Shown one piece after another: positions 8,300 through 38,828 of a stretch of 62,080 nt of DNA. Under the pieces are notes generated by a model. That model searched no databases and was not told where the DNA came from. It worked only from the letters and a program-made list of their open reading frames with translations. Made by a program: the position numbers and the translations under genes. This DNA is from Spirochaetaceae bacterium (lineage in GTDB: Bacteria; Spirochaetota; Spirochaetia; DSM-27196; SLAA01), in NCBI GenBank assembly GCA_003552985.1, contig PUPD01000115.1, positions 1 to 62,080 on the forward strand, written 5' to 3'. Within the stretch, counting starts at the first letter, position 1; each line of letters starts with the position of its first letter.

Positions 8300-8328
8300 A
8301 CTGTACCGTAACATAAGTCATATGTCAA
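8300..8328 (-). promoter_or_regulatory. Putative sigma70-type promoter of the TPP-enzyme gene. The -35 TTGACA lies inside motif copy 1 and the -10 is TACAGT after a 17-nt spacer.
   Basis: The minus strand reads TTGACA-tatgacttatgttacgg-TACAGT, about 50 nt upstream of the start at 8249. Confidence 0.4.
8315..8328 (-). promoter_or_regulatory. Motif copy 1: TTGACATATGACTT (putative operator overlapping the -35)
   Basis: The plus strand reads aagtcatatgtcaa. The 17-mer cataagtcatatgtcaa at 8312-8328 is identical to 38758-38774. Confidence 0.55.
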
Positions 8329-8399
8329 TAAATCTAAGATTTCTATCGCTTCCGCACCTTGTCGTTGATGGAATCGTACGCAGAGTATAGTATCTTGGT

Positions 8400-8428
8400 T
8401 TGCAAAGTAGTGACATATGTTGTATAAT
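8400..8428 (+). promoter_or_regulatory. Putative sigma70 promoter of the 8459-16149 operon (TTGCAA-17 nt-TATAAT)
   Basis: -35 at 8400-8405 and a perfect -10 TATAAT at 8423-8428. Motif copy 2 fills the spacer. Confidence 0.5.
8410..8423 (+). promoter_or_regulatory. Motif copy 2: GTGACATATGTTGT (putative operator in the promoter spacer)
   Basis: It shares the TGACATATG core with the other copies and lies between the -35 and -10. Confidence 0.45.
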
Positions 8429-8458
8429 TGCTCCACTCTACCGTGGGAGGAGACAGGA

Positions 8459-9409
8459 GTGAGCGAATTACATGAGATCGCGCGCCCGGGACTCATGCTT
8501 TCACAGGTCTGGCCGCAGTCGCGGGAGTCGGAAGGTGAGACTTTGAGAGCAATGCAGACCGCAGTTGAAAGCGGACGATTCGCCGCATTTCAGACCGTCG
8601 AGATCCCGTTTCCCGCTGAACGCAGGGAGATGGCGCGTCTGTTGCAGGGAAACGACTTCCGTTACACCTACTGTCTCACACGCGTTCTGAACGAGAACGG
8701 CATTGACCTCTCGGCGATCGACAACACTCATCGACGCGAATCGTTGCGTGCAATTATTCCGCACCTAGATCACGCACGGGAAGCCGGCGCCGATTCGGTA
8801 AGCTTGATAAGCGGTTCTTGCCCCGGCAGCGAATCCGACCGTCGACACGCTCTGGTTGCTCTCGCGGACTCCATGCGCGAGCTGGTGAAGGCTGCGCTGG
8901 AGCCCCCCGCGTTGAACATTCTGCTCGAGCCACTTGATGTGGCGTCGCACAAGAACAGAGCTCTCGGGCACACCCGTGAAGCGGTCGCGATCTGCGCCGA
9001 GCTGGCCGACGACGACTTGCCATTGTTCATTTCACTTGATACAGCGCATATCATCCTCAACAACGAAGACCCCGTTGAAGCGTTACAGATGGCGTTGGAG
9101 TATACGGCGGATTTCCACTATTGCAACTGTGTCACCGATCGAGAACACCCGTTGTACGGGGACAATCACATACCATTCGGCCCGCCGGGCGTTCTGGATC
9201 TCGCCGAGATTTCGGCGATCATGAAACACCAATCAGCACTGACATATTTCGGCGCGAGAAGACGACCCGTCGTGATGTGCGAAGTCTTCAACAGCGAGGG
9301 GAACTCGTACGAGATGATGCATTATTGTATCGACACCATGGAATCGGCATGGCGCAGTGTGGTCTTGCATGACGAGCGGGACCGCGCTGCCGAAGAAACT
9401 AGATCATAA
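8459..9409 (+). CDS. Xylose-isomerase-like TIM-barrel protein (sugar phosphate isomerase/epimerase; IolE/IolI-like fold)
   Basis: A GTG start with a GGAGG RBS is preferred over the ATG at 8417. The length and pattern (LDTAHI..., HIPFG) are typical of the AP-endonuclease-2/xylose-isomerase-like TIM family. Confidence 0.6.
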   Translation: MSELHEIARPGLMLSQVWPQSRESEGETLRAMQTAVESGRFAAFQTVEIPFPAERREMARLLQGNDFRYTYCLTRVLNENGIDLSAIDNTHRRESLRAIIPHLDHAREAGADSVSLISGSCPGSESDRRHALVALADSMRELVKAALEPPALNILLEPLDVASHKNRALGHTREAVAICAELADDDLPLFISLDTAHIILNNEDPVEALQMALEYTADFHYCNCVTDREHPLYGDNHIPFGPPGVLDLAEISAIMKHQSALTYFGARRRPVVMCEVFNSEGNSYEMMHYCIDTMESAWRSVVLHDERDRAAEETRS

Positions 9410-9451
9410 TTGACGCTGTCAGGATCTGCATTAACGAAAGGAGGAGCAGCT

Positions 9452-10276
9452 GTGATACCGGCATGCGGGCGTATCCGAGAGCGGATTAAGCCAGGGATCA
9501 ACCCCCTAATTACTGATCAGTTGCAGCATCTTCAGTTCTCAACGCTCAGCCTCACCAGTGGTCAGGAAGTAACGCTGGATACCGGCGAAAGAGAGTTCGC
9601 CGCCGTTCTGATACACGGACAGTGTGAGATCGAGGTTGCGGGCGAAGGGCGCTACACGCTTGGCCCCAGGGAGAATCCGTTCGAACACGGTCCTTACGCA
9701 TACTTCGCAACACGTGAGAATCGGCTCGTCTTCCGAGGTTCTCAACCGTCATTGATCGGCATAGGAAGCGCTCCGGCGCAACAGGCGTACCCTAACAGCT
9801 ACGTCACGCCCGATATGGTCTCAACAGTTGAACGTGGAGCCGACAACTGGACGCGCACGGTACGAATGATATGCTGGTCGACCAACACCGCGGGCAACAT
9901 GTTGCTTGCCGGAGAGACTTGTACACCGTCGGGAAACTGGTCGACCATACCACCGCACCGGCATCAATTCGACATAGAGAACGAAGAGGCCCCCTATGAA
10001 GAAGTTTACTTTTTCCGGTTCTCACGACCACAAGGTTTCGGTCTGACATGGCAGTTCGACGACGACAACATGCTCGACCAGGCGTTCAGCCTACAACCGA
10101 ATGACGTGCTCTACATGGCCGGCGGATATCATCCGGTCGTTTGTGCGCCGGGAGGAACGCTCTACCATCTCTCACTGATGGCGGGGCCGAAGCGAATCTC
10201 GAAGGCACGGGTACACCAAGACTACCGGTTCTTGCTCGAGCAACAGCAATTGCCGAATCAGTATACCCCTCAGTGA
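9452..10276 (+). CDS. IolB/KduI-family isomerase (5-deoxy-glucuronate isomerase-like cupin)
   Basis: IPPHRHQ...EEVYFFRFSRPQGFG...GGYHPVVCAPGGTLYHLSLMAG matches the IolB signature. GTG start with a GGAGG RBS; the listed ORF starts at 9410. Confidence 0.7.
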   Translation: MIPACGRIRERIKPGINPLITDQLQHLQFSTLSLTSGQEVTLDTGEREFAAVLIHGQCEIEVAGEGRYTLGPRENPFEHGPYAYFATRENRLVFRGSQPSLIGIGSAPAQQAYPNSYVTPDMVSTVERGADNWTRTVRMICWSTNTAGNMLLAGETCTPSGNWSTIPPHRHQFDIENEEAPYEEVYFFRFSRPQGFGLTWQFDDDNMLDQAFSLQPNDVLYMAGGYHPVVCAPGGTLYHLSLMAGPKRISKARVHQDYRFLLEQQQLPNQYTPQ

Positions 10277-10292
10277 AACGAGAGGAGCACGC

Positions 10293-12167
10293 ATGCAGTC
10301 TCCCGGAGTCGAACACCATACAGGCCTAACTCTGCCGGCGGTGCACAGTCGCAGGCAAGCAAACATTGAGCTGCACCACGGCGACCTTCCAAAGGTTCAG
10401 GGCGTGCACAGCTACCAGGTAATGCGTGCCCAACGAAACAGCGACGGCGTCGAGAACTGGACTTACAACCATGCTCCAATGCTGGCTTACTGGAATGACC
10501 GGTTCTACCTCCAGTATCTGAGCAATCCCGTCGGCGAGCATATTCCGCCGGGTCGTACCTTGCTCACAGTCTCAACGGACGGTCGCACGTGGAAGCCGGC
10601 TCGGGTTCTCTTCGAGCCACATCACATCGCAGCCGGCGAGTATCCTGGGGTCGATCCGGAGCTTACAAAGAACGACACTCAGGCCGTGATGCATCAACGA
10701 ATGGGGTTTTACGTAGCTCCCAACGGCCGCTTGCTGACACTCGGATTCTATGGAATCTCTCCGCTTGCCGAGCTTCCGCCGTTCGACACACGCGGAATCG
10801 GCCGCGTTGTGAGGGAAATCTTTCCCGATGACACATGGGGGCCGGTGTACTTCATTCATCTCAACACGCAAGCCGGATGGAGTGAGCGCAACGTCTGGTT
10901 GCCCTGGTATCGTCAAAGCGACGATCTCGAGTTCATCCAAGCGTGCGAAGCTTTGCTCGACGACCAGCTTGCCGTGCAGCAATGGTTGGAGGAACACGGG
11001 CCGTCCGACGATCGGATTACGCTCAAAGGACTGTACAAAGCGTTGTCGTATTACAGCCTCCCGGACGGACGCACCGTCGGATTCTGGAAATGGTCGCGTG
11101 CCGGAGTAACTCTCGATCGAGGCGAGACATGGGACACAGTGGGCGAAGTGCCTTCGATTGAGACTGCCGGGGGCAAGATCTGGGGCCAGAGGAGTTCCGA
11201 CGGCCGCTATGTTCTGATCTATAACCCGACCATGAATAATCGTCACCGCTGGCCGCTCGCGCTGACCACCAGTGACGACGGGTTTCAGTTCAGAGACTTG
11301 GCAACTGTGTGCGGCGACGTTTCCCCGCGAAGGTACACTGGCAGTCACAAGGATTTCGGCCTCAACTACGTGCGAGGCATCGTCGAAGGCAACGGGAGTC
11401 CGCCGGACGGCGATGTCTGGGTCACATACTCAATGAACAAGGAAGACATCTGGATCACCAGGATTTCGGTCCCGATAACGACCGAGGCTGCAAGCCACAT
11501 TGATGACGACTTCACGGCCGAAGGACATGAGCAGCTGCTACGAAGATGGTCTATCTTCAGTCCGCGGTTGGCGCCGGTCACCGTGGAATCCGAATCACAG
11601 TCTTCGCCCGTGCATTATCTCTGTATCCGTGATGACGACCCTTACGACTACGCGATGGCGGAGCGAAGCTTTCCGGAATCTACCGCTGTGCGGGTGAGCA
11701 TCGAGCTGGCGGCGGGTAGTTCGAATGCGGGGCGCCTTTTTCTAGAGCTACACGATTCCTGCAGTCGCATTCCCGTCCGCGTTGTGTGGGATTCAGACGG
11801 AAAGGTAAAGATCGACCACTCGAGAGGACTGACGGCAGTGGCGCCGTACCATCGCGAACAGCCGGTGCGGATTACACTGGTCGCCGATGCCGGGCGGAAC
11901 TGCTTTCGACTGTCCATTGACGACCGTCTTACCGGCTCGGGACAGGTCTATAACGGAGAGGACTGGTCACAGCCGCGTTGGTATTTTATTGCTTCGGTTA
12001 AGACGCTGTCACGCGTAGTCCTGCGAACCAAGCCCTTGCATCGTACGCCTACTGTGGACACGCCGCTCGAGCCGCACCAAGATCTTCCGGAGCGCTCTGC
12101 GACGCCCGGACCGGCCGAATTTCGTGTCTTTCGGATCACCACAACCATTCCAACAGAGAAGGTATGA
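10293..12167 (+). CDS. Uncharacterised 624-aa cytoplasmic protein; possible sialidase/BNR-like beta-propeller with a C-terminal beta-sandwich
   Basis: GAGGAG RBS and no signal peptide. Asp-box-like segments are present (STDGRTW, SSDGRY, TSDDGFQF). The fold assignment is tentative. Confidence 0.4.
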   Translation: MQSPGVEHHTGLTLPAVHSRRQANIELHHGDLPKVQGVHSYQVMRAQRNSDGVENWTYNHAPMLAYWNDRFYLQYLSNPVGEHIPPGRTLLTVSTDGRTWKPARVLFEPHHIAAGEYPGVDPELTKNDTQAVMHQRMGFYVAPNGRLLTLGFYGISPLAELPPFDTRGIGRVVREIFPDDTWGPVYFIHLNTQAGWSERNVWLPWYRQSDDLEFIQACEALLDDQLAVQQWLEEHGPSDDRITLKGLYKALSYYSLPDGRTVGFWKWSRAGVTLDRGETWDTVGEVPSIETAGGKIWGQRSSDGRYVLIYNPTMNNRHRWPLALTTSDDGFQFRDLATVCGDVSPRRYTGSHKDFGLNYVRGIVEGNGSPPDGDVWVTYSMNKEDIWITRISVPITTEAASHIDDDFTAEGHEQLLRRWSIFSPRLAPVTVESESQSSPVHYLCIRDDDPYDYAMAERSFPESTAVRVSIELAAGSSNAGRLFLELHDSCSRIPVRVVWDSDGKVKIDHSRGLTAVAPYHREQPVRITLVADAGRNCFRLSIDDRLTGSGQVYNGEDWSQPRWYFIASVKTLSRVVLRTKPLHRTPTVDTPLEPHQDLPERSATPGPAEFRVFRITTTIPTEKV

Positions 12168-13120
12168 CTATGACGGGCTCCTCGCATCGGGACAAGCGAC
12201 CCGCCCATGAGAGCAATACAGCGGCCGGTATCGGCGGAGTCCTTCCGGCTGTAATCACTCCATTACGGCGGGACGACAGGCTCGACGAGCAGGCGTTCGA
12301 GCGACACCTCCGAAACCTGCTGGACGCCGGTGTTCACGGTTTGTTCATCGGGGGCACAGCCGGAGAGGGCCCGTACATCACGCCCGAGGAACGTGCAGAG
12401 CTCTGGCAAGTTGCGACTGCAACGGCAGGAGACGAGATCAGGCTGGTTGTCGCCTTTCTCCAACCTGATACGCGGTCGGTGCTTCGGGCGATGCAGCAGT
12501 TCGCACAAAGGCAGGGTCGTCGCCGGCCGGATTTCGTTTCTGCGATCACTCCCTTGTACTACCCGATGGATCAGACCGCGCTCATTGCCCATTTTGAGGC
12601 TATTGCCGAAGAAGCGCCGGCGCCTCTCATCATCTACAACATTCCGGGGAACACCCACAACCCGTTGACGCTGGACACGTTAATGCAGCTCGGGCGGCAT
12701 CCGCGCATCGCGGGAGTAAAGGAGAGCTCAGGCGATTTCGCCTTGTTCAGTCAGGGAGTGTTGAACTGCGATCGAGCGGAGTTTGCCTGGATACAAGGCA
12801 AAGACCTGCTTGACGGCCCCGCGCTTATGATCGGCGCTCCCGCATTGATTACAGGACTGGGGAATGTCTGGATCGAGCCTTATCTCGAGCTGTATCAGGC
12901 AGCGACCAAGCATGCATGGGACGAGGTCGATCGCTATCAAAGGCTGATAAATGGGTTATCACATGCGCTGCGTTCAGCGGGCGTCTCTCCGCTGTCAGCA
13001 ACCAAGTCGGCCGCTTGCAAGCGCCTAGGGATCGAGCCGGTTTTCCGTGTTCCAGGGCTGGAGCCGGAGCCGCAGCTCATCTCAACGATTTTTCGGCGGG
13101 TAAGCGAGCTCAGCGGGTGA
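12164..13120 (+). CDS. DHDPS / N-acetylneuraminate-lyase family class I aldolase
   Basis: The ATGA start overlaps the preceding stop. GVHGLFIGGTAGEGPYITPEER and the GVKESSG lysine motif are typical of the family. Confidence 0.75.
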   Translation: MTMTGSSHRDKRPAHESNTAAGIGGVLPAVITPLRRDDRLDEQAFERHLRNLLDAGVHGLFIGGTAGEGPYITPEERAELWQVATATAGDEIRLVVAFLQPDTRSVLRAMQQFAQRQGRRRPDFVSAITPLYYPMDQTALIAHFEAIAEEAPAPLIIYNIPGNTHNPLTLDTLMQLGRHPRIAGVKESSGDFALFSQGVLNCDRAEFAWIQGKDLLDGPALMIGAPALITGLGNVWIEPYLELYQAATKHAWDEVDRYQRLINGLSHALRSAGVSPLSATKSAACKRLGIEPVFRVPGLEPEPQLISTIFRRVSELSG

Positions 13121-13127
13121 TACTTCG

Positions 13128-14294
13128 ATGAAGGTAACCGCCGTGACGTCTGTCGGGCTTACCTCCGAGTATATCCGACCGCATACGCATGCGGACTACT
13201 CCGCCAACGGCATGAGAAACTGCGTCTGGACACGAATCGATACCGACGAAGGCGTTCACGGGTGGGGCGAAGCATACTGCGGTTGCTACGCCACAGAGGT
13301 GACGTTGGCGGCGATTAAGAGGCTTGCACGCAGTATCGTCGGGCGCGACCCTCGCAAGCCCGACACGGTACTGAGCGAGATGCGTTTCCGAAACCGTTAC
13401 TGGGCTATGCGCGGTATCGGAGCGCAGTGTACCAGCGCGATCGAAGCCGCCCTTTGGGATATCGCCGGCAAGGTAGCGGGTCAGCCGCTCTGGCGTCTGC
13501 TGGGCGACGGGGCACCGCGACCGGTGCTCCTGTACGCGAGCGCCGGAGAAAGCCATCTGTCTCCGGACGAGGTGTTTAACGAAGTACGCGAGTGCACCGC
13601 TTTGGGCTTTCACGCCTATAAGATTCGCTGCGGCGGCCGGCGCGATGCCTGTGAGCCCGATCTAGAAACCGACCGAAGGAGAGTTGAGGCCGCGCGCGCC
13701 GCGCTCGGCGAGTCCGGGAAGCTCTTCGTTGATATCGCGGTACCGCAGAAGACCTCGCAGTGGGATATTGCACGAGTCGAAGCGTTTTCCCGCGCCTTGT
13801 CGGACCTTGACGTGGGATTCCTGGAAGAGCCGGCAATGACGTACGATGTGATCGGCTATCGCCGTATCCGTGAGCTGGGGCTTATACCTCCTGCAGGTGG
13901 CGAATCATTCTCCTGCCCCGAGGAGTTTACACCGTTTCTGGAAGCGGGCGCTTACGGAGTGGCTCAACCGGACGCGGCGGTCTGCGGTGGGCCGGCGAGC
14001 TGCACCAAAGTTATTCAGCAAGCGGCCCGGCGGAGTGTTCCTGTCGCGATTCACGCCTGGTCAGCCGGAGTTGGGCTCGCCCAGAACATACATGCAGCGT
14101 GCAGCTGTGAGGGGGTTACGGTGATGGAGTGGCCGATGTCGCATCACCCACTCGCCGAACTGCCATTGCGGAATATGTGGGACTTTCGAGACGGGATGCT
14201 GCACCCGCCTGAAGCACCCGGCCTCGGGGTGAGCATAGATGACCAGTTGCTGAGCGCTTATCCTTTGCAACAGGACGAGGAGCGTGACTTTTGA
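13128..14294 (+). CDS. Enolase-superfamily enzyme (mandelate racemase / muconate lactonising family; acid-sugar dehydratase-like)
   Basis: N-terminal capping domain (DEGVHGWGEA), the AIEAALWDIAGK motif, and a barrel domain with metal ligands (VDIAV..., LEEP...). Confidence 0.8.
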   Translation: MKVTAVTSVGLTSEYIRPHTHADYSANGMRNCVWTRIDTDEGVHGWGEAYCGCYATEVTLAAIKRLARSIVGRDPRKPDTVLSEMRFRNRYWAMRGIGAQCTSAIEAALWDIAGKVAGQPLWRLLGDGAPRPVLLYASAGESHLSPDEVFNEVRECTALGFHAYKIRCGGRRDACEPDLETDRRRVEAARAALGESGKLFVDIAVPQKTSQWDIARVEAFSRALSDLDVGFLEEPAMTYDVIGYRRIRELGLIPPAGGESFSCPEEFTPFLEAGAYGVAQPDAAVCGGPASCTKVIQQAARRSVPVAIHAWSAGVGLAQNIHAACSCEGVTVMEWPMSHHPLAELPLRNMWDFRDGMLHPPEAPGLGVSIDDQLLSAYPLQQDEERDF

Positions 14295-15211
14295 CACTGT
14301 CACGGTTGCTTGTGACGCTTACCACTACCGATGAGGATCGTCGCTATCTGCGAGAGCGCCTTCCGGAGGTAGCGGTTCGATTTCTCGGGGCCGCGAAGCC
14401 GAGCCCGGACGACTTGAACTGGGCCGAGGCGGTGCTTGGGAATGTAAAACCCCCCGCGTGCTTGACCGAGTACCCCCGTATTCGCTGGCTCCATTCGCCG
14501 AACGTCGGTCTTGAAGCCTACGACAGCGTGCGCGCGCAGTGTCGCGACCTCGAGATAACGAACACGAAAGGCATAGTTGACGATGCGGTTGCTGAGCATG
14601 CATTGGCGCTGCTTCTCGCTATGACTCGCTCCGTTCCTGTGTTGCTTTCGGCGCAGGCACAGCACCGATGGGATCCGGCGGACTCAGAGGTCTTCCCGCG
14701 CACGACCATCGCCGGCAAGACCGCGCATGTCCTGGGATACGGAGCCATCGCTCGAAACCTCATCGGCAAGTTGGAGGCGTTCGGGATGCGGGTGTCGGTA
14801 TACCGGCGACGCGTCCATGGGAACGACGACCGTGTGAACCGATTTCTCGCTCTGTCGCAGCTCGAGCATACCATCGCGGAAGCCGACGTGGTGTTCGTAT
14901 TGCTGCCGGAGCTCAAGGAAACCGCAGGCCTGATCAACGGACGTATTTTGCAGGCAATGCGCGAAACCGCGTATCTCGTCAATGTCGGCCGCGGAAGCAC
15001 GATAGACGAACGCGCACTGACAACCGCCCTAGAGAGACGCAGCCTGCGCGGAGCAGCGTTGGATGTGTTCACCTCTGAGCCTTTACCGGGAGCGTCACCG
15101 CTCTGGCACCTCCCCAATGCGTTAATATCACCACACGTTGCGAGCCGGTTTGACCGGCTTGTTCGGCGACAGATCGAAAGCTTCGTAGAGCGTTGGAAGC
15201 AGCTGGAGTAA
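14291..15211 (+). CDS. D-isomer-specific 2-hydroxyacid dehydrogenase, NAD-binding
   Basis: The start overlaps the preceding stop. GYGAIARNL (Rossmann fold), GRGSTIDERAL and ISPHVAS are family motifs. Confidence 0.75.
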   Translation: MTLSRLLVTLTTTDEDRRYLRERLPEVAVRFLGAAKPSPDDLNWAEAVLGNVKPPACLTEYPRIRWLHSPNVGLEAYDSVRAQCRDLEITNTKGIVDDAVAEHALALLLAMTRSVPVLLSAQAQHRWDPADSEVFPRTTIAGKTAHVLGYGAIARNLIGKLEAFGMRVSVYRRRVHGNDDRVNRFLALSQLEHTIAEADVVFVLLPELKETAGLINGRILQAMRETAYLVNVGRGSTIDERALTTALERRSLRGAALDVFTSEPLPGASPLWHLPNALISPHVASRFDRLVRRQIESFVERWKQLE

Positions 15212-15225
15212 ACCGGAGCGTTAAG

Positions 15226-16149
15226 ATGAACCATGTTCGCGAAACCAACATACTGAAAGGCATTTGGCCGCCGATCCTACTCGAAACCGGTCCTGACGGC
15301 CGCGTGCGGCTTGATGCGGTCTCGGCTGCGGTCGAGTACTTCGCCGAAAAGGGTGTGCATGGTGTCTATACAGCTGACACCGCCAGCGAGTTTTACACCC
15401 TGGAATTCGACGAATGGGAAGCACTCGCTACCCACTTCCGGGCGGTAACCCTGGAGGCCAACCTCCCCGCCGGCATCGGGTGCACCTGGACGAATCAAGC
15501 CGGGATTGTACGGCGGATCGAGAGAGCACGCGCTCTCAAGTTCGACAACGTTCATCTTTCGCCGCCGTACTGGCTTCCGTTGAACCGGCCGGCCGAGGAG
15601 AAGTTTTGGTCGGCGGTGGCGCTTGTCGCCGGCGATCTCCCGATCGTTGTGTACGCCGGCAGCCGGGGGCAGTACGAGCTGACAGGCGAGGTGTTACAGC
15701 GAATTCGGCGTTCATGTCCGGCGATCGCGGCAACGAAGTCTCTCGGGTTCAATGCCGTAGCCATGAACAGTCTGTTTGTCCAAAGTCCCGACTGCTCTCA
15801 CTTCGTACACGATCAGGTGCTGTCGCTGTGGGGCGGATTGGGGGCGGCCGGTTCGTTCTCGAACCTCGCGTGCCTCTGCCCGGCCGCGATTCTGGAGCTG
15901 TACCATGCAGTGACCAACCGACGATGGGATGACGCCTTCGCGTTGCAGCGACGCATCAACGCCTTCTACCAACACGGTGCCGTGCCAATTCGAGAGGCAG
16001 GGTACATGCTTGACAAAGCCTTGGCCGCGCTCGGCGGCGTACCCGGAATCACCCGCGAGATGCGCGCTCCGTACTGCGCAGTTCCCGACGAGCTGTATCA
16101 CACGCTTTGCGATGCGGCCCGCCGGTACCTTCCGGAGTGCGGATTATAA
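15226..16149 (+). CDS. Divergent DHDPS/NAL-family protein
   Basis: The start is set at MNHVRE with a GGAG RBS. The family layout is kept (GVHGVY..., ATKSLG lysine region), but the usual GTTGE motif is replaced by DTASE. Confidence 0.6.
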   Translation: MNHVRETNILKGIWPPILLETGPDGRVRLDAVSAAVEYFAEKGVHGVYTADTASEFYTLEFDEWEALATHFRAVTLEANLPAGIGCTWTNQAGIVRRIERARALKFDNVHLSPPYWLPLNRPAEEKFWSAVALVAGDLPIVVYAGSRGQYELTGEVLQRIRRSCPAIAATKSLGFNAVAMNSLFVQSPDCSHFVHDQVLSLWGGLGAAGSFSNLACLCPAAILELYHAVTNRRWDDAFALQRRINAFYQHGAVPIREAGYMLDKALAALGGVPGITREMRAPYCAVPDELYHTLCDAARRYLPECGL

Positions 16150-16312
16150 GTAGGAAGCCGTCGAACCGGACGGTCACTCGCAGCATGACGCCTATCGTGG
16201 GTTCCATCGCTAACTCTCTTGCGACTTTAGTACAGATTCAGCCCCGCATTTTGTGCCGCCGGCCGCGTTCCCTCCTTTCTCGATCGAAAGCCTGCAGAGA
16301 GCAAAACTTTGC

Positions 16313-16342
16313 TTGACACGAGTTTCGATCAGGGCTCATAAT
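16313..16342 (+). promoter_or_regulatory. Putative sigma70 promoter of the SBP gene (TTGACA-18 nt-CATAAT)
   Basis: A perfect -35 at 16313-16318 and a -10 at 16337-16342. This implies a 5' leader of about 150 nt. Confidence 0.5.
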
Positions 16343-16353
16343 AGGTACGACAT

Positions 16354-16367
16354 ACGACATATGAACG
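16354..16367 (+). promoter_or_regulatory. Motif copy 3: ACGACATATGAACG (putative operator just downstream of the -10)
   Basis: It has the GACATATGA core and lies 12 nt after the putative -10. Confidence 0.45.
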
Positions 16368-16497
16368 ACCTTCGCGGTCGCGTATTGGGGTTGTAAGTTG
16401 TAGTTCGAGGAGGTGCCGATGACGTAATGCTGACCCTTGCTGGGCCGAATTGAAATCAAATGCCGGATACGGTAGGACAAATCAAGGAGGAGGGTTT

Positions 16498-18546: not shown

Positions 18547-18630
18547 GCACGCTCCTGATCCTGAAGACACCGGCCCCGCCCGCTGCAGGTGGTGCTAGAG
18601 TTTCGGCCGGTGGCCACTAAAGTACAAGCG

Positions 18631-18665
18631 CCCCGATCCGCATAGTTTCGGATCGGGGTTTTTTT
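18631..18665 (+). terminator. Rho-independent terminator after the SBP gene
   Basis: A 10-bp perfect stem (ccccgatccg / cggatcgggg), an 8-nt loop, then a T7 run. Confidence 0.65.
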
Positions 18666-26253: not shown

Positions 26254-26255
26254 TT

Positions 26256-26269
26256 ATGACATGGGTCAC
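26256..26269 (+). promoter_or_regulatory. Motif copy 6 (palindromic variant): ATGACATGGGTCAC
   Basis: It lies immediately after the putative -10. Over the shared 13-nt TGACATG-N-GTCAC core it differs by one base from the site upstream of the GntR gene (TGACATGTGTCAC). Confidence 0.45.
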
Positions 26270-26340
26270 TTTTTGCTTTGCTTTTCTCCGGCCGGGACTA
26301 CGTTCGATTCCGGTATCGATGCCTGCGTGCGGAGGGGACC

Positions 26341-28514: not shown

Positions 28515-28583
28515 ATGTCCTACCTCTAACCTTGTCACGCATTATACCGTGGTAACCCACCCATGGCAACCACGCCATAACAA

Positions 28584-28596
28584 TGCCATATGTCAC
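28584..28596 (-). promoter_or_regulatory. Motif copy 7 (weaker): GTGACATATGGCA
   Basis: It has the TGACATATG core in the divergent region between the GDPD gene and the membrane-protein gene. Confidence 0.35.
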
Positions 28597-28775
28597 TTGT
28601 GCAAATGCCTTGATTCGAGATAGGATTACCTCCGTTGATCACACATTCCGAATCCCACTACGGCTAACTCAGAGCCGTCTGTCGTGGGCGAAATACTCGA
28701 GCAACGACGCGGATGGATGTGGCAGACGGCCGGGTGGACCGGTGTGCATCGAGGAAGCGAGCGAAAGGAATGGCC

Positions 28776-30218: not shown

Positions 30219-30265
30219 ATAGCCCCATGTGTGATTCAATGCCCTTTTGCCCCCGGAGCGAAGTA

Positions 30266-30279
30266 TTGACATGTGTCAC
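30266..30279 (+). promoter_or_regulatory. Motif copy 8 (palindromic variant): TTGACATGTGTCAC upstream of the GntR gene
   Basis: It contains the inverted repeat TGACA-TG-TGTCA, 46 nt upstream of the regulator's ATG. TTGACA can also serve as a -35. Confidence 0.5.
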
Positions 30280-30324
30280 GCATGTGTGGTTTAAGAAAGG
30301 AAAGCGGAGTAGAGGCAAAGCGAA

Positions 30325-31101
30325 ATGATTGAGTCGAGTGGGCGGACGAACAGTCAGCGAACGGTTCTCGGCCAAGTGCCGGTAAAGCGTGTGACCGAGA
30401 GCATTATCGAGCAGTTGGAAGACAGTATACTAAGCGGAGAGCTGAAAGTCGGCGAAAAGCTTCCGTCGGAACAGGAACTTGCCACGCAAGCCGGCGTCGG
30501 ACGACGGGCGATTCGAGAAGCCTTGAAGGCACTAGAGATGAAGGGGCTGATTTCGGTTCGCAAAGGCTCCGGAGCTTTCGTCATACGGAACGATTTTGAC
30601 AACTACATCGAAACATTGTCGCGCAATGTAAAAGCCTATCTCCATGTCAACCGAGCGAGTCTCGCTCATATTCTTCAATACCGCGAAATTCTCGGCGGAA
30701 GCGTTATCAGCATGCTGGCAGCACGTCCCGATGAGGGAACGATTGCGAGAATCGAGGCGACTTTGGACCAGCAGGAACGTGCTCTGGAGAAAAAGAGCCC
30801 TTCGCTGTACACAAAGGCTCACATAGACTACCACCTCGCCATTATAGACAGTCTAGAAAACCCCATTGTCTCGATGATGTACATCGAGATCATACGCCTA
30901 CTCGAGCCTTACATGAAACGTTCCGGCAGTGACCTGGGCATCATGCGGCAGTCAATCGCAGAGCATCGAGAGATCTTGGAAGCGATTAAGGCCAACGACA
31001 CACAGCGCGCGCATAAGGCGTTTCATGTCCACCTAGAGTCTAGTCTGGAGCACTTACGGGTTCTGGTCGACCAAGATAACGGATCCACCGCTCAGTCGTA
31101 A
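30325..31101 (+). CDS. GntR-family transcriptional regulator, FadR subfamily (FCD C-terminal domain)
   Basis: N-terminal winged HTH (KLPSEQELATQAGVGRRAIREALKALEMKGLI) and an all-helical C-terminal domain (AHIDYHLAI..., EHREILEAI). Confidence 0.85.
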   Translation: MIESSGRTNSQRTVLGQVPVKRVTESIIEQLEDSILSGELKVGEKLPSEQELATQAGVGRRAIREALKALEMKGLISVRKGSGAFVIRNDFDNYIETLSRNVKAYLHVNRASLAHILQYREILGGSVISMLAARPDEGTIARIEATLDQQERALEKKSPSLYTKAHIDYHLAIIDSLENPIVSMMYIEIIRLLEPYMKRSGSDLGIMRQSIAEHREILEAIKANDTQRAHKAFHVHLESSLEHLRVLVDQDNGSTAQS

Positions 31102-31217: not shown

Positions 31218-33032
31218 TCACGGTGGTTGCTCGCCGAACTGTCGCCGAACCAAACTGGCGTACACTTTGTTTCGCCGGATGAGCTCTTCATGCGCTCCGG
31301 ACTCCACAATCCGTCCGTCTGAGACCACGAGAACTCGGTTGGCTTTACGCACGGTACTCAAGCGGTGGGCGATGATGACCGAGGTGCGATTGCGGAGCGC
31401 TTCTTCCATTGCGGACAGCACTAACCCCTCGGTCCGCGAGTCTATGTTCGAGGTGGCCTCATCCATGATCAATACACGCGGGTTGACCATGAGCGCTCGC
31501 GCAATGCATATCAACTGTCGCTGGCCATGCGAGAGGTTTACCGCTCCCTCTTGAACCGTCGTCCGGTAACCCTCCGGCAATGACGTTATGAACTCGTGCA
31601 GATGAACACGCTTAGCCATTGCTTCAACCGAGTCCAGTTCGGCACTGGGAACTCCGAATCGGATATTGTCCAGTATCGTTCCGGAGAAGAGAAAAGGCTC
31701 TTGCGGAACAACTGCCATATGCCGCCGCAGAGACGCTTGCGTAACGTGGCGAAGGTCGTGTCCGTCGAGCTTGACCGATCCGGCGGTGGGATCGTAGAAC
31801 CGCAGAATCAGGTTGGCGATTGAGGTCTTTCCAGCCCCGGTCGGTCCCACCAGAGCTACGGTGGTTTCAGGTTCGATTTCGAAAGTAAGGTCCTGCAGCA
31901 CCGGCTCGCCGGCACGGTACGACAACGAGACATTGAGGAACTCGATCCTTCCGTTCACGTCGGTCAAGACCCCCGCATCCACAGCATCGGGTATTCCCGG
32001 CTCAGTCTCGAGGAGATGAAATACCTGCTCACCCGCTGCCAGCGCCGACTGCATTGTCGAGTAGATTTGCGCCAGCTCGCGAATCGGTTGGAAGAACTGC
32101 GAAACATATGCAATAAACGCGACAAGAATGCCTATTGTTACCCCGCCGGCGATGACGTGCAATCCTCCGAACCATAGCACAATCGCAATTGCCGCAACAC
32201 CAAGGAACTCAACAGCCGGGAGAAAGAGAAACGAAACCGACATCGCCCGCACGTGCGAATCCAGGTTGGCGATGTTGGTTTGGTCGAACTCCTCGCGCTT
32301 GCGCTGTTCCTGAGTGAACGCCTGTATAGCCCGAATGCCGGAGATGTTTTCGGCGAGATCTCCCACCACCGAAGCTATGGTTTGACGCGTTCGGCGGTAG
32401 GCTATTCGGGCGTGACGCGAAAACACAAGCGTCACGACGACCATCACCGGGATAACCGCGAAGCTATAGAGTGCCAGTCGAACATCGAGGGACAGCATCA
32501 CGGCGATCGTTCCGGCGAGCAGCAATACATCGCCGAATACTGTCACCAAACCCTGCGTAAGCAACTCGTTGACTGCACCGACATCGTTGATTACTCGTGA
32601 CACGGTAATGCCAACCACAGTGGTGTCATGGTATCCGACGTGGAGTCGTTGCAAGTGACGAAACAGTCGGGACCGCATCTCGACCAGCACGCTCTGCGCT
32701 ACCCATCCGAGGACATAGCGTTGTCCGGCGGTTGCTGCGCATGCAAGACTGTAGACCACCGCAAGGAGTAGCGTGGTGTGGATAAGCCCCGAAATATCCC
32801 GCAGCATGATGTGCTCATCGATGGCAACTTTGATCAAGTACGGTGCGAGCAGATTCATGCCGGTCGCAACCACCATCAAAGCCATCGCGATGAACATCTT
32901 GGTACGGCTCGGTCTAAGAAGCCCCAGTAGGCGACGTGCTAACTGAAGACTGAAGACCCTGCCTTCTTCCGGACTTCCGAAGCTGCGTAGGGCACTTCTG
33001 GCGCCCAACTGCCCTGAGCTGGTACCTATCAT
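31218..33032 (-). CDS. ABC exporter, fused permease/ATPase (type I exporter half-transporter)
   Basis: Six-TM N-terminal domain, then GPTGAGKTS, LSHGQRQL and LIMDEATS. The start overlaps the preceding stop (ATGA). Confidence 0.85.
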   Translation of the reverse strand: MIGTSSGQLGARSALRSFGSPEEGRVFSLQLARRLLGLLRPSRTKMFIAMALMVVATGMNLLAPYLIKVAIDEHIMLRDISGLIHTTLLLAVVYSLACAATAGQRYVLGWVAQSVLVEMRSRLFRHLQRLHVGYHDTTVVGITVSRVINDVGAVNELLTQGLVTVFGDVLLLAGTIAVMLSLDVRLALYSFAVIPVMVVVTLVFSRHARIAYRRTRQTIASVVGDLAENISGIRAIQAFTQEQRKREEFDQTNIANLDSHVRAMSVSFLFLPAVEFLGVAAIAIVLWFGGLHVIAGGVTIGILVAFIAYVSQFFQPIRELAQIYSTMQSALAAGEQVFHLLETEPGIPDAVDAGVLTDVNGRIEFLNVSLSYRAGEPVLQDLTFEIEPETTVALVGPTGAGKTSIANLILRFYDPTAGSVKLDGHDLRHVTQASLRRHMAVVPQEPFLFSGTILDNIRFGVPSAELDSVEAMAKRVHLHEFITSLPEGYRTTVQEGAVNLSHGQRQLICIARALMVNPRVLIMDEATSNIDSRTEGLVLSAMEEALRNRTSVIIAHRLSTVRKANRVLVVSDGRIVESGAHEELIRRNKVYASLVRRQFGEQPP

Positions 33033-34840
33033 TGCAGCGCGTCCTTGGTCGTCACCGGCGATTGGCCGGACCCGAGCATCTGACGCTCATAGATCTCGCG
33101 GTAGAGGCTGCTGTCACGCAGTAGGTCATCATGCCGCCCATCGGCCGTGATGGAACCATTCTCCATAACGATAGCTCGTCCTGCCAACTCCAGCGTGCTC
33201 AACCGCTGGGCAATTATGAATGTCGTGCGCCCGGTCATCAAACGCCTGAGAGCCTGTTGAATTTGGTATTCGGTCTCGGCATCGACACTGGAAGTGGCGT
33301 CATCCAACAGTAGGATTGGCGGGTCTTTGAGCAATGCGCGCGCGATAACCACCCGCTGTCTCTGTCCCCCTGACAGTGTGCGCCCCATCTCCGCAACGCG
33401 TGTGTCGTATCCGTCCGGCATACTGACAATGAACTCGTGCGCTTGGGCGGCCTCGGCAGCTGCAGTTACTTCATCGTCGGTTGCCGACGGTTTCCCGAAA
33501 CTTATGTTCTCACGAATCGTGCCGGAGAATAAGGCGGTGTCCTGAAGTACGATTCCGATCTGATCACGCAGGGACTTCACGGTAACCTCCGTCGTGTCAA
33601 AGCCGTCGATCGTTATTCGCCCGGCGGCGGGATCGTAGAAACGGGGAATCAAGTTCAGAACGGTGGACTTACCCGAACCGGTACCCCCCAGCAACGCAAC
33701 TATCTCCCCGGCCCGCACCTTGAATGAAACATTGCGAACCGCCGGCCCCCGTCCTGCATACGCGAATGACACATTGTCGAAGACTACTTCCCCTGCAACC
33801 GCGGGGAGCTTCACTGCTCCGGGGCTGTCGGCCACCTCCGGCTTTGTGTCAAGAATTTCGAAGATTCGCTCTCCGGAGGAAATGGCCATACCGAGCTTTG
33901 GCGCCACCCGCCCCATCAACCGAACCGGTTGTATAAGCTGAGTAAGGTATACTGTAAATGCCACTAACTCACCGTAACTCAGCCGTTCGCCAATGATGAG
34001 CCAACCACCCACCCCGATTGTCGCCACGATTGCCATGTGAACGATATACAGCAAGAGCGGATCGTTCTTGGCTTGAAGCTTCACCATCTCGACCGACTGC
34101 TCGAACCACTTCGCGTTATCCCGTTCGAATCTCTCGGTCTCGTGGCTTTCCTGGACAAAGCCTTTTACGATACGAACGCCACGCAGATTCTGTTCCAACC
34201 GTGACGCCAAAACGGCGAGTTGGTTTTGAATGCGTAACGACATGGGGCGCACCGCATAACCATAGCGAAACGCGCGATACACCAAGCACGGCATCAGCAA
34301 AAACGCGCAAGCTGCGAGCAGCGGATTCATCGCTACCATAACTGCAAAGGTAGCTACAAGCAGAACAGCCCCGTCGATCAGGCGCATGCTTGCGCGTCCG
34401 GCGATGACCCGGATTCGTTCTACGTCCTGAATCGCCCTCCCCAACAGCTGTCCAGTTTCAGCCTTGTCATGAAACGAGAACGAGAGGTGCGTCAGGCGGT
34501 CGTGTATCTCTCGTCTCAACTCATACGCCACACCCTGCGCCGCTAACTCAGAGACTCGCCCTTGTATAAAGGTGAGTGCCCCCTTGAGAGCTGCCAGCCC
34601 GAGCAGCAACCCCACAAGCACCGCCAGCTGTCGCGCATCGTTGCGAGCAATACCACGATCTACGACGAGACGAATCACCTGGGGCATCCCGAGGGAGATT
34701 CCGTTAATGAGCGGAATCATGAGCGCCGCAATCGAGATAGACCAGATATACGGTTTCGCGTATGAGTAGCATCGTAAGAGCGTCAGCAATCCTGCAGGCA
34801 GCTGCACTCGTTTGATCCGGATCAATGCATTACCCTGCAC
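33029..34840 (-). CDS. ABC exporter, fused permease/ATPase (heterodimer partner)
   Basis: GGTGSGKST, LSGGQRQR and LLLDDATS. GTG start. Confidence 0.85.
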   Translation of the reverse strand: MQGNALIRIKRVQLPAGLLTLLRCYSYAKPYIWSISIAALMIPLINGISLGMPQVIRLVVDRGIARNDARQLAVLVGLLLGLAALKGALTFIQGRVSELAAQGVAYELRREIHDRLTHLSFSFHDKAETGQLLGRAIQDVERIRVIAGRASMRLIDGAVLLVATFAVMVAMNPLLAACAFLLMPCLVYRAFRYGYAVRPMSLRIQNQLAVLASRLEQNLRGVRIVKGFVQESHETERFERDNAKWFEQSVEMVKLQAKNDPLLLYIVHMAIVATIGVGGWLIIGERLSYGELVAFTVYLTQLIQPVRLMGRVAPKLGMAISSGERIFEILDTKPEVADSPGAVKLPAVAGEVVFDNVSFAYAGRGPAVRNVSFKVRAGEIVALLGGTGSGKSTVLNLIPRFYDPAAGRITIDGFDTTEVTVKSLRDQIGIVLQDTALFSGTIRENISFGKPSATDDEVTAAAEAAQAHEFIVSMPDGYDTRVAEMGRTLSGGQRQRVVIARALLKDPPILLLDDATSSVDAETEYQIQQALRRLMTGRTTFIIAQRLSTLELAGRAIVMENGSITADGRHDDLLRDSSLYREIYERQMLGSGQSPVTTKDALQ

Positions 34841-37181: not shown

Positions 37182-37213
37182 CACTTCTCCCTTCATTAGC
37201 CAAGCCGAAGCTC

Positions 37214-38644
37214 TTATTCTGCGGTAAGATGGTATGCAGTCGGGCCGTTGAGAACCGCCAGTTTCCCATCTCTCACAAAGCCTTCCGGACGTCCGTTTAG
37301 TACCGAAATGAGACGAGCACGCCACTCCGCCAGCTCGTCACGCGACGCAGTCAGCGCGAGATTGCACAGCTCTTCGGGATCCTGTTTCAAATCGAAGAAC
37401 TGCTCTTCATCCCGGCCGGGAAACCAAACGTATTTTCTGCGTCCGTCGGTTAGGTACTGCACTCCGCTGTTGAGCGTTCGCACATCGGCGCATTCACCAT
37501 GAACGAAATCGCGGCGCAACGGCTCTCCGTTCAACAACGGGACGAGATCTCGGCCGTCCAGGTGTTGCGGTATTGCGATACCCGCTGCCGCAAGGCAAGT
37601 CGGCATGACATCCGACAGCTGAACCGGTGCCTCACAAACCTCGCCTGTACGCCCCCCCCAACTATCCGGCGGCCGGATGATGAACGGTATGTTCACCGCT
37701 CCTTGCCAAGGGCAATGCTTGCGGAACCACTGGTGGTCGCCGAGCATCTCGCCATGGTCCGACACAAACACGATCAATGTCTCCTGCGGCCGGGGCAGAG
37801 CCATAAGTATGCGATTGATCTGGTCATCTATATGATTGATGCTGCCGTAGTAGGCTGCCTCCAGCTGGCGCTGCATCGGAGGTTCGAGGTAAATCCTCGT
37901 AGGATCTCGGTGGTTGCCTCGCGTCGGCTGCTCAAATACCCGCGCCCAGTCGCCCACGGGACGCGGCGGCAGAGGTACGTCTAGGTAGCGCTCGTAGTAG
38001 AGCGAGGGCGGAGTACATGGAGGGTGGGGATGCAGATAGCTGACCTTCAAGAAGAATGGAACTGTCGGATCTCGTCGATCAAGAAACTCGATCGCACGGT
38101 CGGTAACCCAGTTGCTGAAATGCAGCCGCTCGTCCGCATGCCATGGACGGGCGATCGGGGTATTCGAGCTGAGTCCGTGGGCCCCCGAGAAACCCGGAAG
38201 GTGCATGCCCTCGGAGACGAGAAACCGCTGATAGTCATTGACGATCGGCCGTCCGCGGCTCGTTTTGATTACCGGTTTGGCATCGTCGGCCCAGTCAGTG
38301 CTCATGAAACCGTGCAGTTTTCTGAGTGGAGTGAGATGCAGCTTACCGCAAAGATGGGTTTGATATCCGTTGTGGCTCAGCAACTCAGGCAATGTGGGCC
38401 CGGGCAATGGCACCTCAGGTATGTGGTTCATCACAACACCGTGATTCGCCGGAAATCGACCGGTCATGAGCGAGCGACGGGCGGGAACGCAGACCGGACA
38501 CTCGGAAAACGCATTCGAGAAGCGTACACCGGCGGCGGCCAACCAGTCGAGATGTGGAGTCTGTACGACAGGGTGACCGGCGCACGAGAGGCAATCCCCC
38601 CTGTGCTGGTCCGTCATCAGGAGCAATATGTCCGGACGCTTCAT
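37214..38644 (-). CDS. Sulfatase (Cys-type), no signal peptide
   Basis: It starts MKRPDILLLMTDQHRGD. The motif is CVPARRSLMTGR, which fits C-x-P-x-R. Confidence 0.85.
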   Translation of the reverse strand: MKRPDILLLMTDQHRGDCLSCAGHPVVQTPHLDWLAAAGVRFSNAFSECPVCVPARRSLMTGRFPANHGVVMNHIPEVPLPGPTLPELLSHNGYQTHLCGKLHLTPLRKLHGFMSTDWADDAKPVIKTSRGRPIVNDYQRFLVSEGMHLPGFSGAHGLSSNTPIARPWHADERLHFSNWVTDRAIEFLDRRDPTVPFFLKVSYLHPHPPCTPPSLYYERYLDVPLPPRPVGDWARVFEQPTRGNHRDPTRIYLEPPMQRQLEAAYYGSINHIDDQINRILMALPRPQETLIVFVSDHGEMLGDHQWFRKHCPWQGAVNIPFIIRPPDSWGGRTGEVCEAPVQLSDVMPTCLAAAGIAIPQHLDGRDLVPLLNGEPLRRDFVHGECADVRTLNSGVQYLTDGRRKYVWFPGRDEEQFFDLKQDPEELCNLALTASRDELAEWRARLISVLNGRPEGFVRDGKLAVLNGPTAYHLTAE

Positions 38645-38745
38645 CTTTACTCCTTATGGATCGACGCCTGCCAGATCGTACATCGCGAGCGGTGAATGAT
38701 CCGCGATACCAGCAGAAATGACGCCACCGCTGCCAGCGTCACCTC

Positions 38746-38774
38746 ATGCTATAGCATCATAAGTCATATGTCAA
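38746..38774 (-). promoter_or_regulatory. Putative promoter of the sulfatase-sulfatase-TIM-ABC exporter operon. The -35 TTGACA lies in motif copy 9; the -10 is TAGCAT after 17 nt.
   Basis: The minus strand reads TTGACA-tatgacttatgatgcta-TAGCAT, about 100 nt upstream of the start at 38644. Confidence 0.4.
38761..38774 (-). promoter_or_regulatory. Motif copy 9: TTGACATATGACTT
   Basis: The plus strand reads aagtcatatgtcaa, identical to copy 1. Confidence 0.55.
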
Positions 38775-38814
38775 CGGCCCGCCTCCGGTCCCCGGGCGCC
38801 CTCGGACCAATGTC

Positions 38815-38828
38815 TTGACATATGACCT
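38815..38828 (+). promoter_or_regulatory. Motif copy 10: TTGACATATGACCT (the -35 of the 38901 operon; a TACCGT -10 candidate follows after 17 nt)
   Basis: It is inverted relative to copy 9, with a 40-bp gap, in the divergent intergenic region. Confidence 0.55.

Follow-up and report, generated by a model that had tools for sequence, protein, structure and literature searches.

A recurrent promoter motif in a sulfatase island of a soda-lake spirochaete is a probable operator of the island's own FadR-subfamily GntR regulator

Contig PUPD01000115.1 of an uncultured Spirochaetaceae bacterium (assembly GCA_003552985.1), referred to below as the window (62 080 nucleotides), carries an island of genes for sulfated-glycan and sugar-acid catabolism in which a short motif containing the word GACATATG recurs from promoter to promoter. 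Comparison with related loci makes it very probable that this motif is the operator of the island's own regulator, a GntR protein of the FadR subfamily encoded at 30325–31101; the repression it would exert would most likely be relieved by a sugar acid. The switch is most likely of an ordinary kind, but the group of regulators and the motif are newly described, and they come from an uncultured soda-lake spirochaete. A concrete, testable regulon and operator code would thereby become available for a set of sulfatase and acid-sugar genes of uncultured soda-lake spirochaetes, organisms in which hardly any experimental genetics has been possible.

The word GACATATG has nine exact matches in the window, against 0.98 ± 1.0 expected, and a count of at least nine was reached in none of 100 dinucleotide-preserving shuffles. 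All nine matches are non-coding and lie within the island at 8.3–38.8 kb; intergenic DNA makes up 5.4% of the window (3371 bp), where about 0.07 matches would be expected. The 12-mer TTGACATATGAC is present in four exact copies, and an unbiased word count returns motif words as the most over-represented intergenic 8-mers and 10-mers of the window, with nothing convincing among the other shared intergenic 10-mers. No copy of GACATATG is found in the ∼31 kb of the window outside the island, and a position weight matrix (PWM) scan detects none in the other intergenic regions of the window. The eight copies listed in an earlier sequence-only reading of this DNA were all recovered, position and strand included. 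The 17-mer CATAAGTCATATGTCAA, which that reading found to be identical at 8312–8328 and 38758–38774, is indeed shared, and because the identity ends immediately on both flanks the pair is not the remnant of a segmental duplication. The claim that every copy is intergenic stands for all listed copies: an ATG at 8417 would make the copy at 8410–8423 overlap the start of an open reading frame, but the ribosome-binding site GGGAGGAG and the N-terminus of the orthologue in a related locus (L003) place the start at a GTG near 8458, so that this copy falls in a promoter spacer. The claim is uncertain for a ninth exact core at 28512–28519, absent from the earlier list, which falls on the ribosome-binding site and start codon of a GDPD gene and is ambiguous. 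A candidate copy at 61988 (TTGTCATATGAG) was rejected, as it is merely the start-codon context of an HMG-CoA synthase gene, with a PWM score below those of the 40 best window matches. An Rfam scan of the whole window finds no RNA family; the long leaders 16150–16449 and 25902–26277 are thus not known riboswitches.

The individual sites, the regulator gene and the inferred regulon are as follows (numbers marked PWM are matrix scores; a slash within a site marks its centre; TPP, thiamine pyrophosphate; ABC, ATP-binding cassette).

5592–41067: inferred extent of the regulon, about ten transcription units, with membership taken from upstream sites only (gene contents from Pfam and NCBIfam).
8312–8329, minus strand: operator TTGACATATGACTTATG, on the -35 of the promoter that precedes the TPP-enzyme gene and the Na/Ca-exchanger gene (minus strand, 8279 to 5592).
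8307–8322: secondary match shifted by 7 bp, beside operator 8312–8329.
8409–8424, plus strand: operator AGTGACAT/ATGTTGTA, the best match in the window (PWM 20.0), in the promoter spacer of the eight-gene operon 8458–16149.
16346–16368, plus strand: two overlapping operator matches (TACGACATACGACATATGAACGA; PWM 12.7 and 10.8), directly 3' of a -10 and upstream of the SBP_bac_5 gene 16450–18546.
25978–25993, plus strand: operator CCGACATATGACTC, over the -35 and spacer of a minus-strand promoter of the Opp-type ABC/sulfatase operon 25901–18761.
26092–26107, minus strand: operator TTGACATATGACGT, at the -35 of another promoter candidate on the minus strand, further upstream, for the Opp-type ABC/sulfatase operon.
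26255–26270, plus strand: palindromic variant TATGACAT/GGGTCACT (PWM 11.3), at or just past the predicted start site; sulfatase gene 26278–27783.
28507–28522, minus strand: possible extra site TAGGACATATGATACA (PWM 14.6), on the ribosome-binding site and ATG of the GDPD gene, whose product would start MIQVIGHRG; ambiguous.
28582–28597, minus strand: operator GTGACATATGGCA (PWM 17.5), just upstream of the GDPD -35 and the sole site in the interval that separates the GDPD gene from the divergent membrane-protein gene 28713–30218.
30265–30280, plus strand: autoregulatory operator variant ATTGACAT/GTGTCACG (PWM 13.6), whose TTGACA is the -35 candidate of the regulator promoter.
30325–31101, plus strand: regulator gene, 258 residues, GntR winged helix and FCD domain (PF00392, 5.5e-21; PF07729, 1.2e-24).
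38758–38775, minus strand: operator TTGACATATGACTTATG, the -35 of the promoter of operon 38644–31218 (two sulfatases, a TIM-barrel protein and two ABC exporters).
38814–38829, plus strand: operator TTGACATATGACCT, the -35 candidate of the TIM-barrel/enolase-superfamily operon 38901–41067.

The proposal that the motif precedes essentially each operon of the island is borne out, since each of the approximately ten units has a copy upstream; the exception, the membrane-protein gene 28713–30218, shares site 28582–28597 with the divergent GDPD gene. A consensus scan places six promoter-like sites so that they overlap or abut a motif copy.

8328–8300, minus strand: TTGACA-17-TACAGT; the motif is the -35.
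8400–8428, plus strand: TTGCAA-17-TATAAT; motif within the spacer.
16313–16342, plus strand: TTGACA-18-CATAAT (11/12 consensus); motif directly past the -10.
25994–25966, minus strand: TTGAGT-17-TATTAT; motif on the -35 and spacer.
28569–28541, minus strand: TTGCCA-17-TATAAT (11/12 consensus); motif just upstream of the -35.
38774–38746, minus strand: TTGACA-17-TAGCAT; the motif is the -35.

By these scans operators overlap core promoter elements at 8328–8300, 8400–8428, 16313–16342, 25994–25966 and 38774–38746. Four further arrangements with TTGACA were identified by inspection: TTGACA-17-TAGTCT at 26106 on the minus strand, which falls under the threshold of the scan, TTGACA-17-TAnnnT at 38815 on the plus strand, and TTGACA-17-GTTTAA as the candidate promoter of the regulator itself; a TTGACA at 26226 puts the variant 26255–26270 at the predicted start site. 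The suggestion that the TTGACA of the motif also serves as a -35 hexamer, followed at 17 nt by TAnnnT, holds at 8328, 26106 and 38774 on the minus strand and at 38815 on the plus strand, two of the four passing the stricter scan. Likewise, the placing of the 8410 copy within a promoter spacer survives the correction of the gene start, and that of the 16354 copy directly past a -10 agrees with the promoter at 16313–16342. The orthologous promoters of site 38814–38829 carry sites in loci L001 (1034) and L005 (7670), and the solute-binding protein (SBP) genes of L001 and L003 carry sites as well. The 10-mer TGTCACGCAT is common to 28533–28542, beside the GDPD -10, and 30274–30283, in the operator region of the regulator, and may reflect an additional TGACA half-site at the start site of GDPD, or else mere coincidence.

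The association of motif and regulator was examined in 13 non-redundant orthologue loci of metagenomic origin (regulator identity 39–83%) beside the window. Scans with the regulator alignment yielded four true orthologue loci in genomes and three in metagenomes, and the remaining matches, distant FadR paralogues at 23–32% identity, served as controls (the surroundings of these genes at 153 loci, amounting to 1.97 Mb). Orthologues at 39–83% identity are found in uncultured material only, the best in a Spirochaetaceae metagenome-assembled genome (83%) and the next in other such Spirochaetaceae genomes; the window sequence itself is found in salt-lake and soda-lake metagenomes, and a near-identity search of a plasmid collection with 24 kb of the island returned just one 69 bp match at chance level and hence no relative with annotation. 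All 13 orthologue loci carry the motif, at G+C contents of 38–63% and with differing gene content, in agreement with the expectation that orthologous islands would retain it. In the orthologue loci GACATATG reaches a density of 0.15 per kb, whether the window is counted or not, versus 0.0056 per kb in the controls (∼27-fold). Of the 31 distinct exact-core sites, L010 7741 falls within a gene and window 28514 on a start codon, the rest being intergenic; an apparent coding placement of three others (L001 2768, L007 12560 and L171 5979) was discarded, as database gene calls put all three in intergenic DNA. A PWM trained solely on the distant orthologues (defined below) recovers the window's sites as its ten best window matches, all intergenic; the four coding matches with scores of at least 8 are what chance predicts. 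The same matrix finds 0.226 matches per kb in the close group, on which it was not trained, versus 0.032 per kb in the controls.

The gene families behind the sites recur across genomes and include TIM-barrel/KduI/BT_1020 operons, dihydrodipicolinate synthase (DHDPS)-family genes, TIM-barrel/enolase pairs, sulfatases, ABC permeases and SBP genes. Most loci also have sites in front of the regulator gene or the operon that contains it (window 30265–30280; L001 1110; L003 5213; L008 9794; L014 9843 and 9858; L092 1872; L093 7759 and 7774; L171 5972), the arrangement of an autoregulated local regulon. In the most distant orthologues (L014, with 38% G+C, L092 and L093) the neighbors differ and comprise TctC, a DUF1537-type kinase, PdxA and Fe-ADH; perfect palindromes nevertheless lie directly upstream of the regulator gene in all three (38–62% G+C). 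The regulator is the sole gene common to all 14 motif-bearing loci and is for this reason by far the likeliest binder. The proposal of a single regulon under the local GntR/FadR protein is thus supported by association, through the 13 orthologue loci and the distant-trained PWM.

Two arrangements of sites in these loci are recorded here as separate observations. At L014 9843–9873 and L093 7759–7789 (38 and 49% G+C), the region upstream of the regulator gene holds two full operators whose centers are separated by exactly 15 bp, a spacing that hints at two dimers in a conserved arrangement on the autoregulated promoter. In L003 the identical 16-mer operator variant TATGACCTATGTTAAA occurs twice (246–261 and 4520–4535), one copy lying 53 nt upstream of an SBP gene, in parallel to the 17-mer pair of the window.

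The regulator consists of a GntR-type winged helix–turn–helix (wHTH) domain (PF00392, residues 25–86, E = 5.5e-21) and an all-helical FCD domain (PF07729, residues 116–238, E = 1.2e-24). It is the sole DNA-binding protein found in the island, and its earlier designation as the only island regulator is upheld by Pfam and NCBIfam. It aligns over its full length with the structures of NanR, of 7c7e (a 229-residue putative DNA-binding regulator) and of PdhR; the nearest solved structure is that of Escherichia coli NanR (E = 1.2e-20). NanR is also the best NCBIfam model (NF003011), with a score of 144.3 bits that lies far below the cutoff of 260, and the protein does not belong to the NanR orthologous group. 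In 15 aligned orthologues of the regulator the wHTH hardly varies (e.g. Pro47, Glu49, Gly59, Arg60, Arg61, Arg64, Lys73, Gly74, Arg79, Gly81 and Gly83), and Arg120, His166, His170, His214 and His236 of the FCD region are invariant. A HMMER alignment pairs these five residues with the ligands of NanR.

NanR Asp172, Zn ligand: His166 here.
NanR His176, Zn ligand: His170 here.
NanR His222, Zn ligand: His214 here.
NanR His244, Zn ligand: His236 here.
NanR Arg128, which binds the carboxylate of N-acetylneuraminate (Neu5Ac): Arg120 here.

This correspondence in the alignment suggests as effector a carboxylated sugar that would be bound jointly with a metal, which would suit a regulon whose enzymes act on sugar acids. 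The Pfam GntR domain begins after about 24 residues, residue 20 of the query aligning with residue 29 of NanR, and the N-termini are ∼10 residues longer in the close group than in the distant group.

The close group comprises the window and relatives with regulators at least 68% identical, and the distant group the other orthologues; the two differ in the symmetry of the motif. The consensus of the distant group is a 16 bp palindrome, TA-TGACAT/ATGTCA-TA, whereas in the close group the right half is consistently ATGAC-n-TA, giving TGACATA-TGACnTA (asymmetric form versus palindrome: TGACATATGACnTA versus TGACATATGTCA; TGACATATGACTTA versus TGACATATGTCATA). Among G[AT]CATATG[AT]C decamers, the close group has nine GACATATGAC, no GACATATGTC and no GTCATATGAC, and the distant group none, six and one, respectively (Fisher's exact test for 9/0 versus 0/6, calculated by hand, p = 2e-4; for A versus T at position +4, p = 3.4e-5). 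The outer flanks are dyad-symmetric about the same center in both groups (A at -11/-10, G/C at -9, G/C at +10 and T at +11/+12). The A at +4 is also found where the site is not a -35 (16356, 25981 and L001 2764), and sites turn over at orthologous promoters (window 8412 in the spacer versus L003 11370 on the -35); it thus seems that the protein prefers the asymmetric form, and that neither the promoter nor simple inheritance accounts for it. Because the palindrome already comes close to a 7 bp direct repeat (TGACATA/TGTCATA), the 7-bp-shifted matches at 8307, 16346 and 38753 are partly explained. A consistent third half-site in the close group (an h-N-h-h' architecture) was considered and rejected, matches to the expected box being barely above chance by inspection. 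A CAT/GTG or CAT/GAG variant occurs at the regulator-upstream sites of three close-group genomes (the window, L001 1110 and L003 5213) and is plausibly a weaker, autoregulatory operator. The sequence-only reading had described the core as a direct repeat and not a GntR palindrome; for the lineage of the window this is correct (nine asymmetric sites and no palindromic ones), but it is incomplete overall, as the repeat is derived from a palindrome (0 versus 6 in the distant group). A full-text literature search for GACATATGTC returned mostly eukaryotic and viral topics and one mycobacteriophage repressor, with titles that point to no described GntR operator.

Comparison with characterized systems places the regulator within a well-known kind of system. 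E. coli NanR is the FadR-subfamily GntR repressor of the sialic acid regulon (PDB entries 6on4, 6wfq and 6wg7); on (GGTATA)3 it assembles as three dimers, each in an asymmetric pose with one wHTH on the consensus repeat, and cooperativity is provided by an N-terminal extension of 32 residues. The present regulator shares with NanR the wHTH and FCD architecture and a regulon for acidic-sugar catabolism that includes a DHDPS-family lyase, and some of its invariant residues align with the zinc ligands and the carboxylate-binding arginine of NanR; the non-palindromic, asymmetrically bound NanR repeat also provides a precedent for an asymmetric operator. Unlike the NanR operator, with its periods of 8–9 bp and three dimers, the site here is TGACATA-TGACnTA with a 7 bp period and corresponds to a palindrome in relatives; the N-terminal extension of NanR is longer, and the targets are sulfatases, an Opp-type ABC importer and KduI/IolB rather than nanATEK. 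No GGTATA-type word is present among the 15 commonest intergenic 8-mers or the ten commonest 10-mers, the recurrent word being GACATATG(A/T)C. Because operator sequence, periodicity, family score and targets differ, we assign the protein to the FadR subfamily but not to NanR.

Operators of this subfamily are normally palindromes with TKGT-N2-3-ACMA boxes, NanR (direct repeats) and BioR being accepted exceptions. Such an operator, which is typical of the subfamily and not required for membership, is not found here. Like the operators of canonical FadR, PdhR, LldR, DgoR and UxuR/ExuR, the sites of the distant orthologues are dyad-symmetric, A/T-rich and ∼16 bp long, and, as in those systems, the sites overlap promoters, the regulator gene is included and the regulon is local. 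Unlike in those operators, the dinucleotides are everted (AC-N4-GT in GACATATGTC versus GT-N3-AC), and in the lineage of the window the palindrome is lost through a change that recurs from site to site and is not random. GntR palindromes with an extra half-site box 7–12 nt away have been described (Suvorova et al., 2015; PMC4494728). Comparable half-site-like matches occur here 7 bp off the main site (8307/8314, 16346/16353, L014 9858/9865 and L093 7774/7781), as do the tandem full sites 15 bp apart; in contrast to the described boxes, the shifted box overlaps the main site and is partly predicted by the self-similarity of the motif, so that it gives weak independent support.

These comparisons lead us to infer binding, repression, oligomeric state and effector along the following lines. 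The regulator, presumably a dimer, would bind a site of ∼16–22 bp centered on CAT/ATG. As the sites lie on the -35, spacer or start site of σ70-type promoters, the bound protein would exclude or stall RNA polymerase, and about ten units of the catabolic island would be repressed, the regulator gene included through its weaker CAT/GTG variant. An acidic sugar intermediate, derived from the imported and desulfated substrate, may occupy a putative zinc-containing pocket of the FCD domain and release the repressor. The ancestral operator would have been the palindrome TA-TGACAT/ATGTCA-TA, from which the preferred form in this Spirochaetaceae lineage has shifted to the asymmetric TGACATA-TGACnTA, in which a perfect half-site is often fused to the -35 hexamer TTGACA.

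Several points weigh against this interpretation. The motif departs from the canonical FadR-subfamily TKGT-N3-ACMA arrangement, and a symmetric homodimer offers no obvious explanation for a preferred asymmetric site. The promoters are consensus matches, and the total number of promoter-like sites is not above shuffle expectation. Site 28582–28597 lies upstream of its -35, a position compatible with activation as well, and genome-wide specificity is judged from the ∼31 kb window flanks and the control loci. The misfit to the family consensus, together with a divergent LacI-family gene beside the L093 sites, would also suit a different factor, encoded elsewhere (e.g. a global carbon-catabolite regulator), with the local GntR protein recognizing something else. 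We consider this very unlikely: an orthologue of the regulator is the one gene shared by 14 loci of different taxon, G+C content and gene complement, most of these loci have sites directly in front of its gene or operon, the motif is ∼27-fold rarer around the 153 other FadR-family genes, and a second factor would be unparsimonious given this co-occurrence. Still less likely is it that the word belongs to promoters in general (as an extended -35, TTGACAtatgac) or marks a mobile element or dispersed repeat. Four copies do share TTGACA with -35 candidates, but others lie in spacers, past a -10 or opposite to the promoter (8412, 16356, 25981 and 26257), other intergenic regions of the window lack copies, likeness between copies ends within 17 bp, the distant orthologues keep the palindrome ATGACATATGTCAT without TTGACA, and Rfam finds nothing in the window. 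Activation, or a dual role at some promoters, has a somewhat better but still low probability. It draws on the GDPD gene, where site 28582–28597 is centered ∼20 bp upstream of the -35 of the best promoter candidate, and on the weak -10 candidates behind the TTGACA sites (TAGTCT, TACCGT and GTTTAA), such weak elements being typical of activator-dependent promoters. Most sites nevertheless fall on a -35, spacer or start site, and characterized FadR-subfamily sugar-acid regulators such as NanR are substrate-released repressors. DgoR, UxuR/ExuR and LldR are substrate-released repressors as well.

A different matter is how the asymmetric site is read, a question that would refine operator function under the local FadR-subfamily regulator and not replace it. 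In a NanR-like manner, one wHTH might contact TGACATA and the other wHTH, in a different pose, or a second cooperative dimer, the TGACnTA 7 bp further on, making the site a true direct repeat rather than a degenerate palindrome. The decamer counts of the two groups (9/0/0 versus 0/6/1), the A at +4 of the non--35 sites 16356, 25981 and L001 2764, the TA that 13 of 15 sites have behind the second unit, the 7-bp-shifted matches at 8307 and 16346 and the tandem sites 15 bp apart in L014 and L093 are all in keeping with this possibility, as are the longer N-termini of the close group (by ∼10 residues), the asymmetric, cooperative binding of repeats through the N-terminal extension by NanR, the nearest characterized relative, and the known extra boxes 7–12 nt from GntR palindromes (PMC4494728). 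On the other hand, the outer flanks are symmetric about the CAT/ATG dyad in both groups, the shifted matches are partly automatic because the palindrome is itself a near-repeat, the third box is weak and inconsistent in the alignment, the nine asymmetric sites come from just four related genomes and the wHTH is almost unchanged between the groups. We therefore hold the direct-repeat reading tentatively, as the less probable of the options for the site. The corresponding evolutionary claim is put forward with similar reserve: within one orthologous group with a near-invariant wHTH, the operator may have switched from a 16 bp palindrome in the distant members to an obligatorily asymmetric 7 bp direct repeat in soda-lake Spirochaetaceae. 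If so, the change implies a different binding mode, either an asymmetric pose or a NanR-like cooperative assembly of several dimers, possibly through the longer N-terminal arm, and it would provide a natural example of repeat-binding GntR regulators such as NanR evolving from palindrome binders. The shift from palindrome to direct repeat would be a small, clean case of co-evolution of operator symmetry and binding mode, in an uncharacterized FadR-subfamily orthologous group whose motif departs from the GT-N-AC rule of the family.

The island encodes five sulfatases (Pfam/NCBIfam), an Opp-type ABC importer and a separate SBP_bac_5 gene. One operon combines a TIM-barrel protein, a KduI/IolB-family isomerase, a BT_1020-like β-propeller with a sialidase-like carbohydrate-binding module, two DHDPS-family proteins, an enolase-superfamily dehydratase and a 2-hydroxyacid dehydrogenase. 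Further genes of the island encode a TPP enzyme alongside a Na/Ca exchanger, the GDPD phosphodiesterase, a membrane protein and two fused ABC exporters, together with a second TIM-barrel and enolase-superfamily pair, which brings the enolase-superfamily genes to two. Shared regulation would tie genes of unknown function to one pathway, among them the conserved 443-residue protein 18761–20092, the BT_1020-like β-propeller and the two ABC exporters. No sulfatase-maturing enzyme (FGE or anSME) is recognizable among the Pfam matches of the island, despite its five sulfatases; a radical-SAM-like gene near the island (43018–44097) was set aside as a candidate, as it matches spore-photoproduct lyase. 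The one related metatranscriptome found (X8) contains almost none of the island, the few matches being cross-matches to ABC ATPase genes and two short identical contigs, and it yielded no start sites.

The island is flanked by housekeeping genes, those for phosphoenolpyruvate carboxykinase, homoserine dehydrogenase, glucan phosphorylase and CheD and by an apparent mevalonate-pathway operon (52658–61994, minus strand). The latter encodes HMG-CoA synthase, an FMN-dependent dehydrogenase resembling type-2 isopentenyl diphosphate isomerase, HMG-CoA reductase, two GHMP-kinase-family proteins and an α/β-hydrolase, is followed by a glycosyltransferase gene with a QTMAN_N domain and carries no motif copies.

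In four loci of distant orthologues (L014 10821–14916, L093 8640–10858, L172 10411–13471 and L008 3683–6521) the regulator is linked to genes for a DUF1537-type kinase (SBD_N/NBD_C), a PdxA-family protein and Fe-ADH, a combination characteristic of four-carbon acid-sugar (tetronate) catabolism. These genes are absent from the window, and the content of the regulon has accordingly shifted between lineages.

The BT_1020-like gene with its sialidase-like module (window 10293–12167, plus strand; L003 7546–9372; L005 11311–13185; L010 2038–3912) stands beside KduI/IolB and TIM-barrel genes, and NCBIfam holds no model for its product. BT_1020 of Bacteroides thetaiotaomicron contains a hydrolase domain for the 2-keto-3-deoxy acid sugar DHA. 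The presence of this gene hints that a residue of the ulosonic acid type is released here.

A protein of ∼443–457 residues without a Pfam or NCBIfam match (window 18761–20092, minus strand; L001 4957–6291; L007 1963–3336) adjoins a sulfatase gene, with genes of the Opp-type transporter close by, both in the window and in two islands orthologous to it, and is a candidate for an unknown component of the pathway. The two fused ABC exporter-type genes (ABC_membrane and ABC_tran; 31218–34840, minus strand) share their operon with two sulfatases and a TIM-barrel gene, which is unusual for a catabolic operon. Directly 3' of the SBP gene lies a strong intrinsic-terminator-like hairpin (18630–18659, plus strand; 11 pairs, eight of them G–C, followed by a T run), which supports the view that this gene is a monocistronic and probably highly expressed unit.

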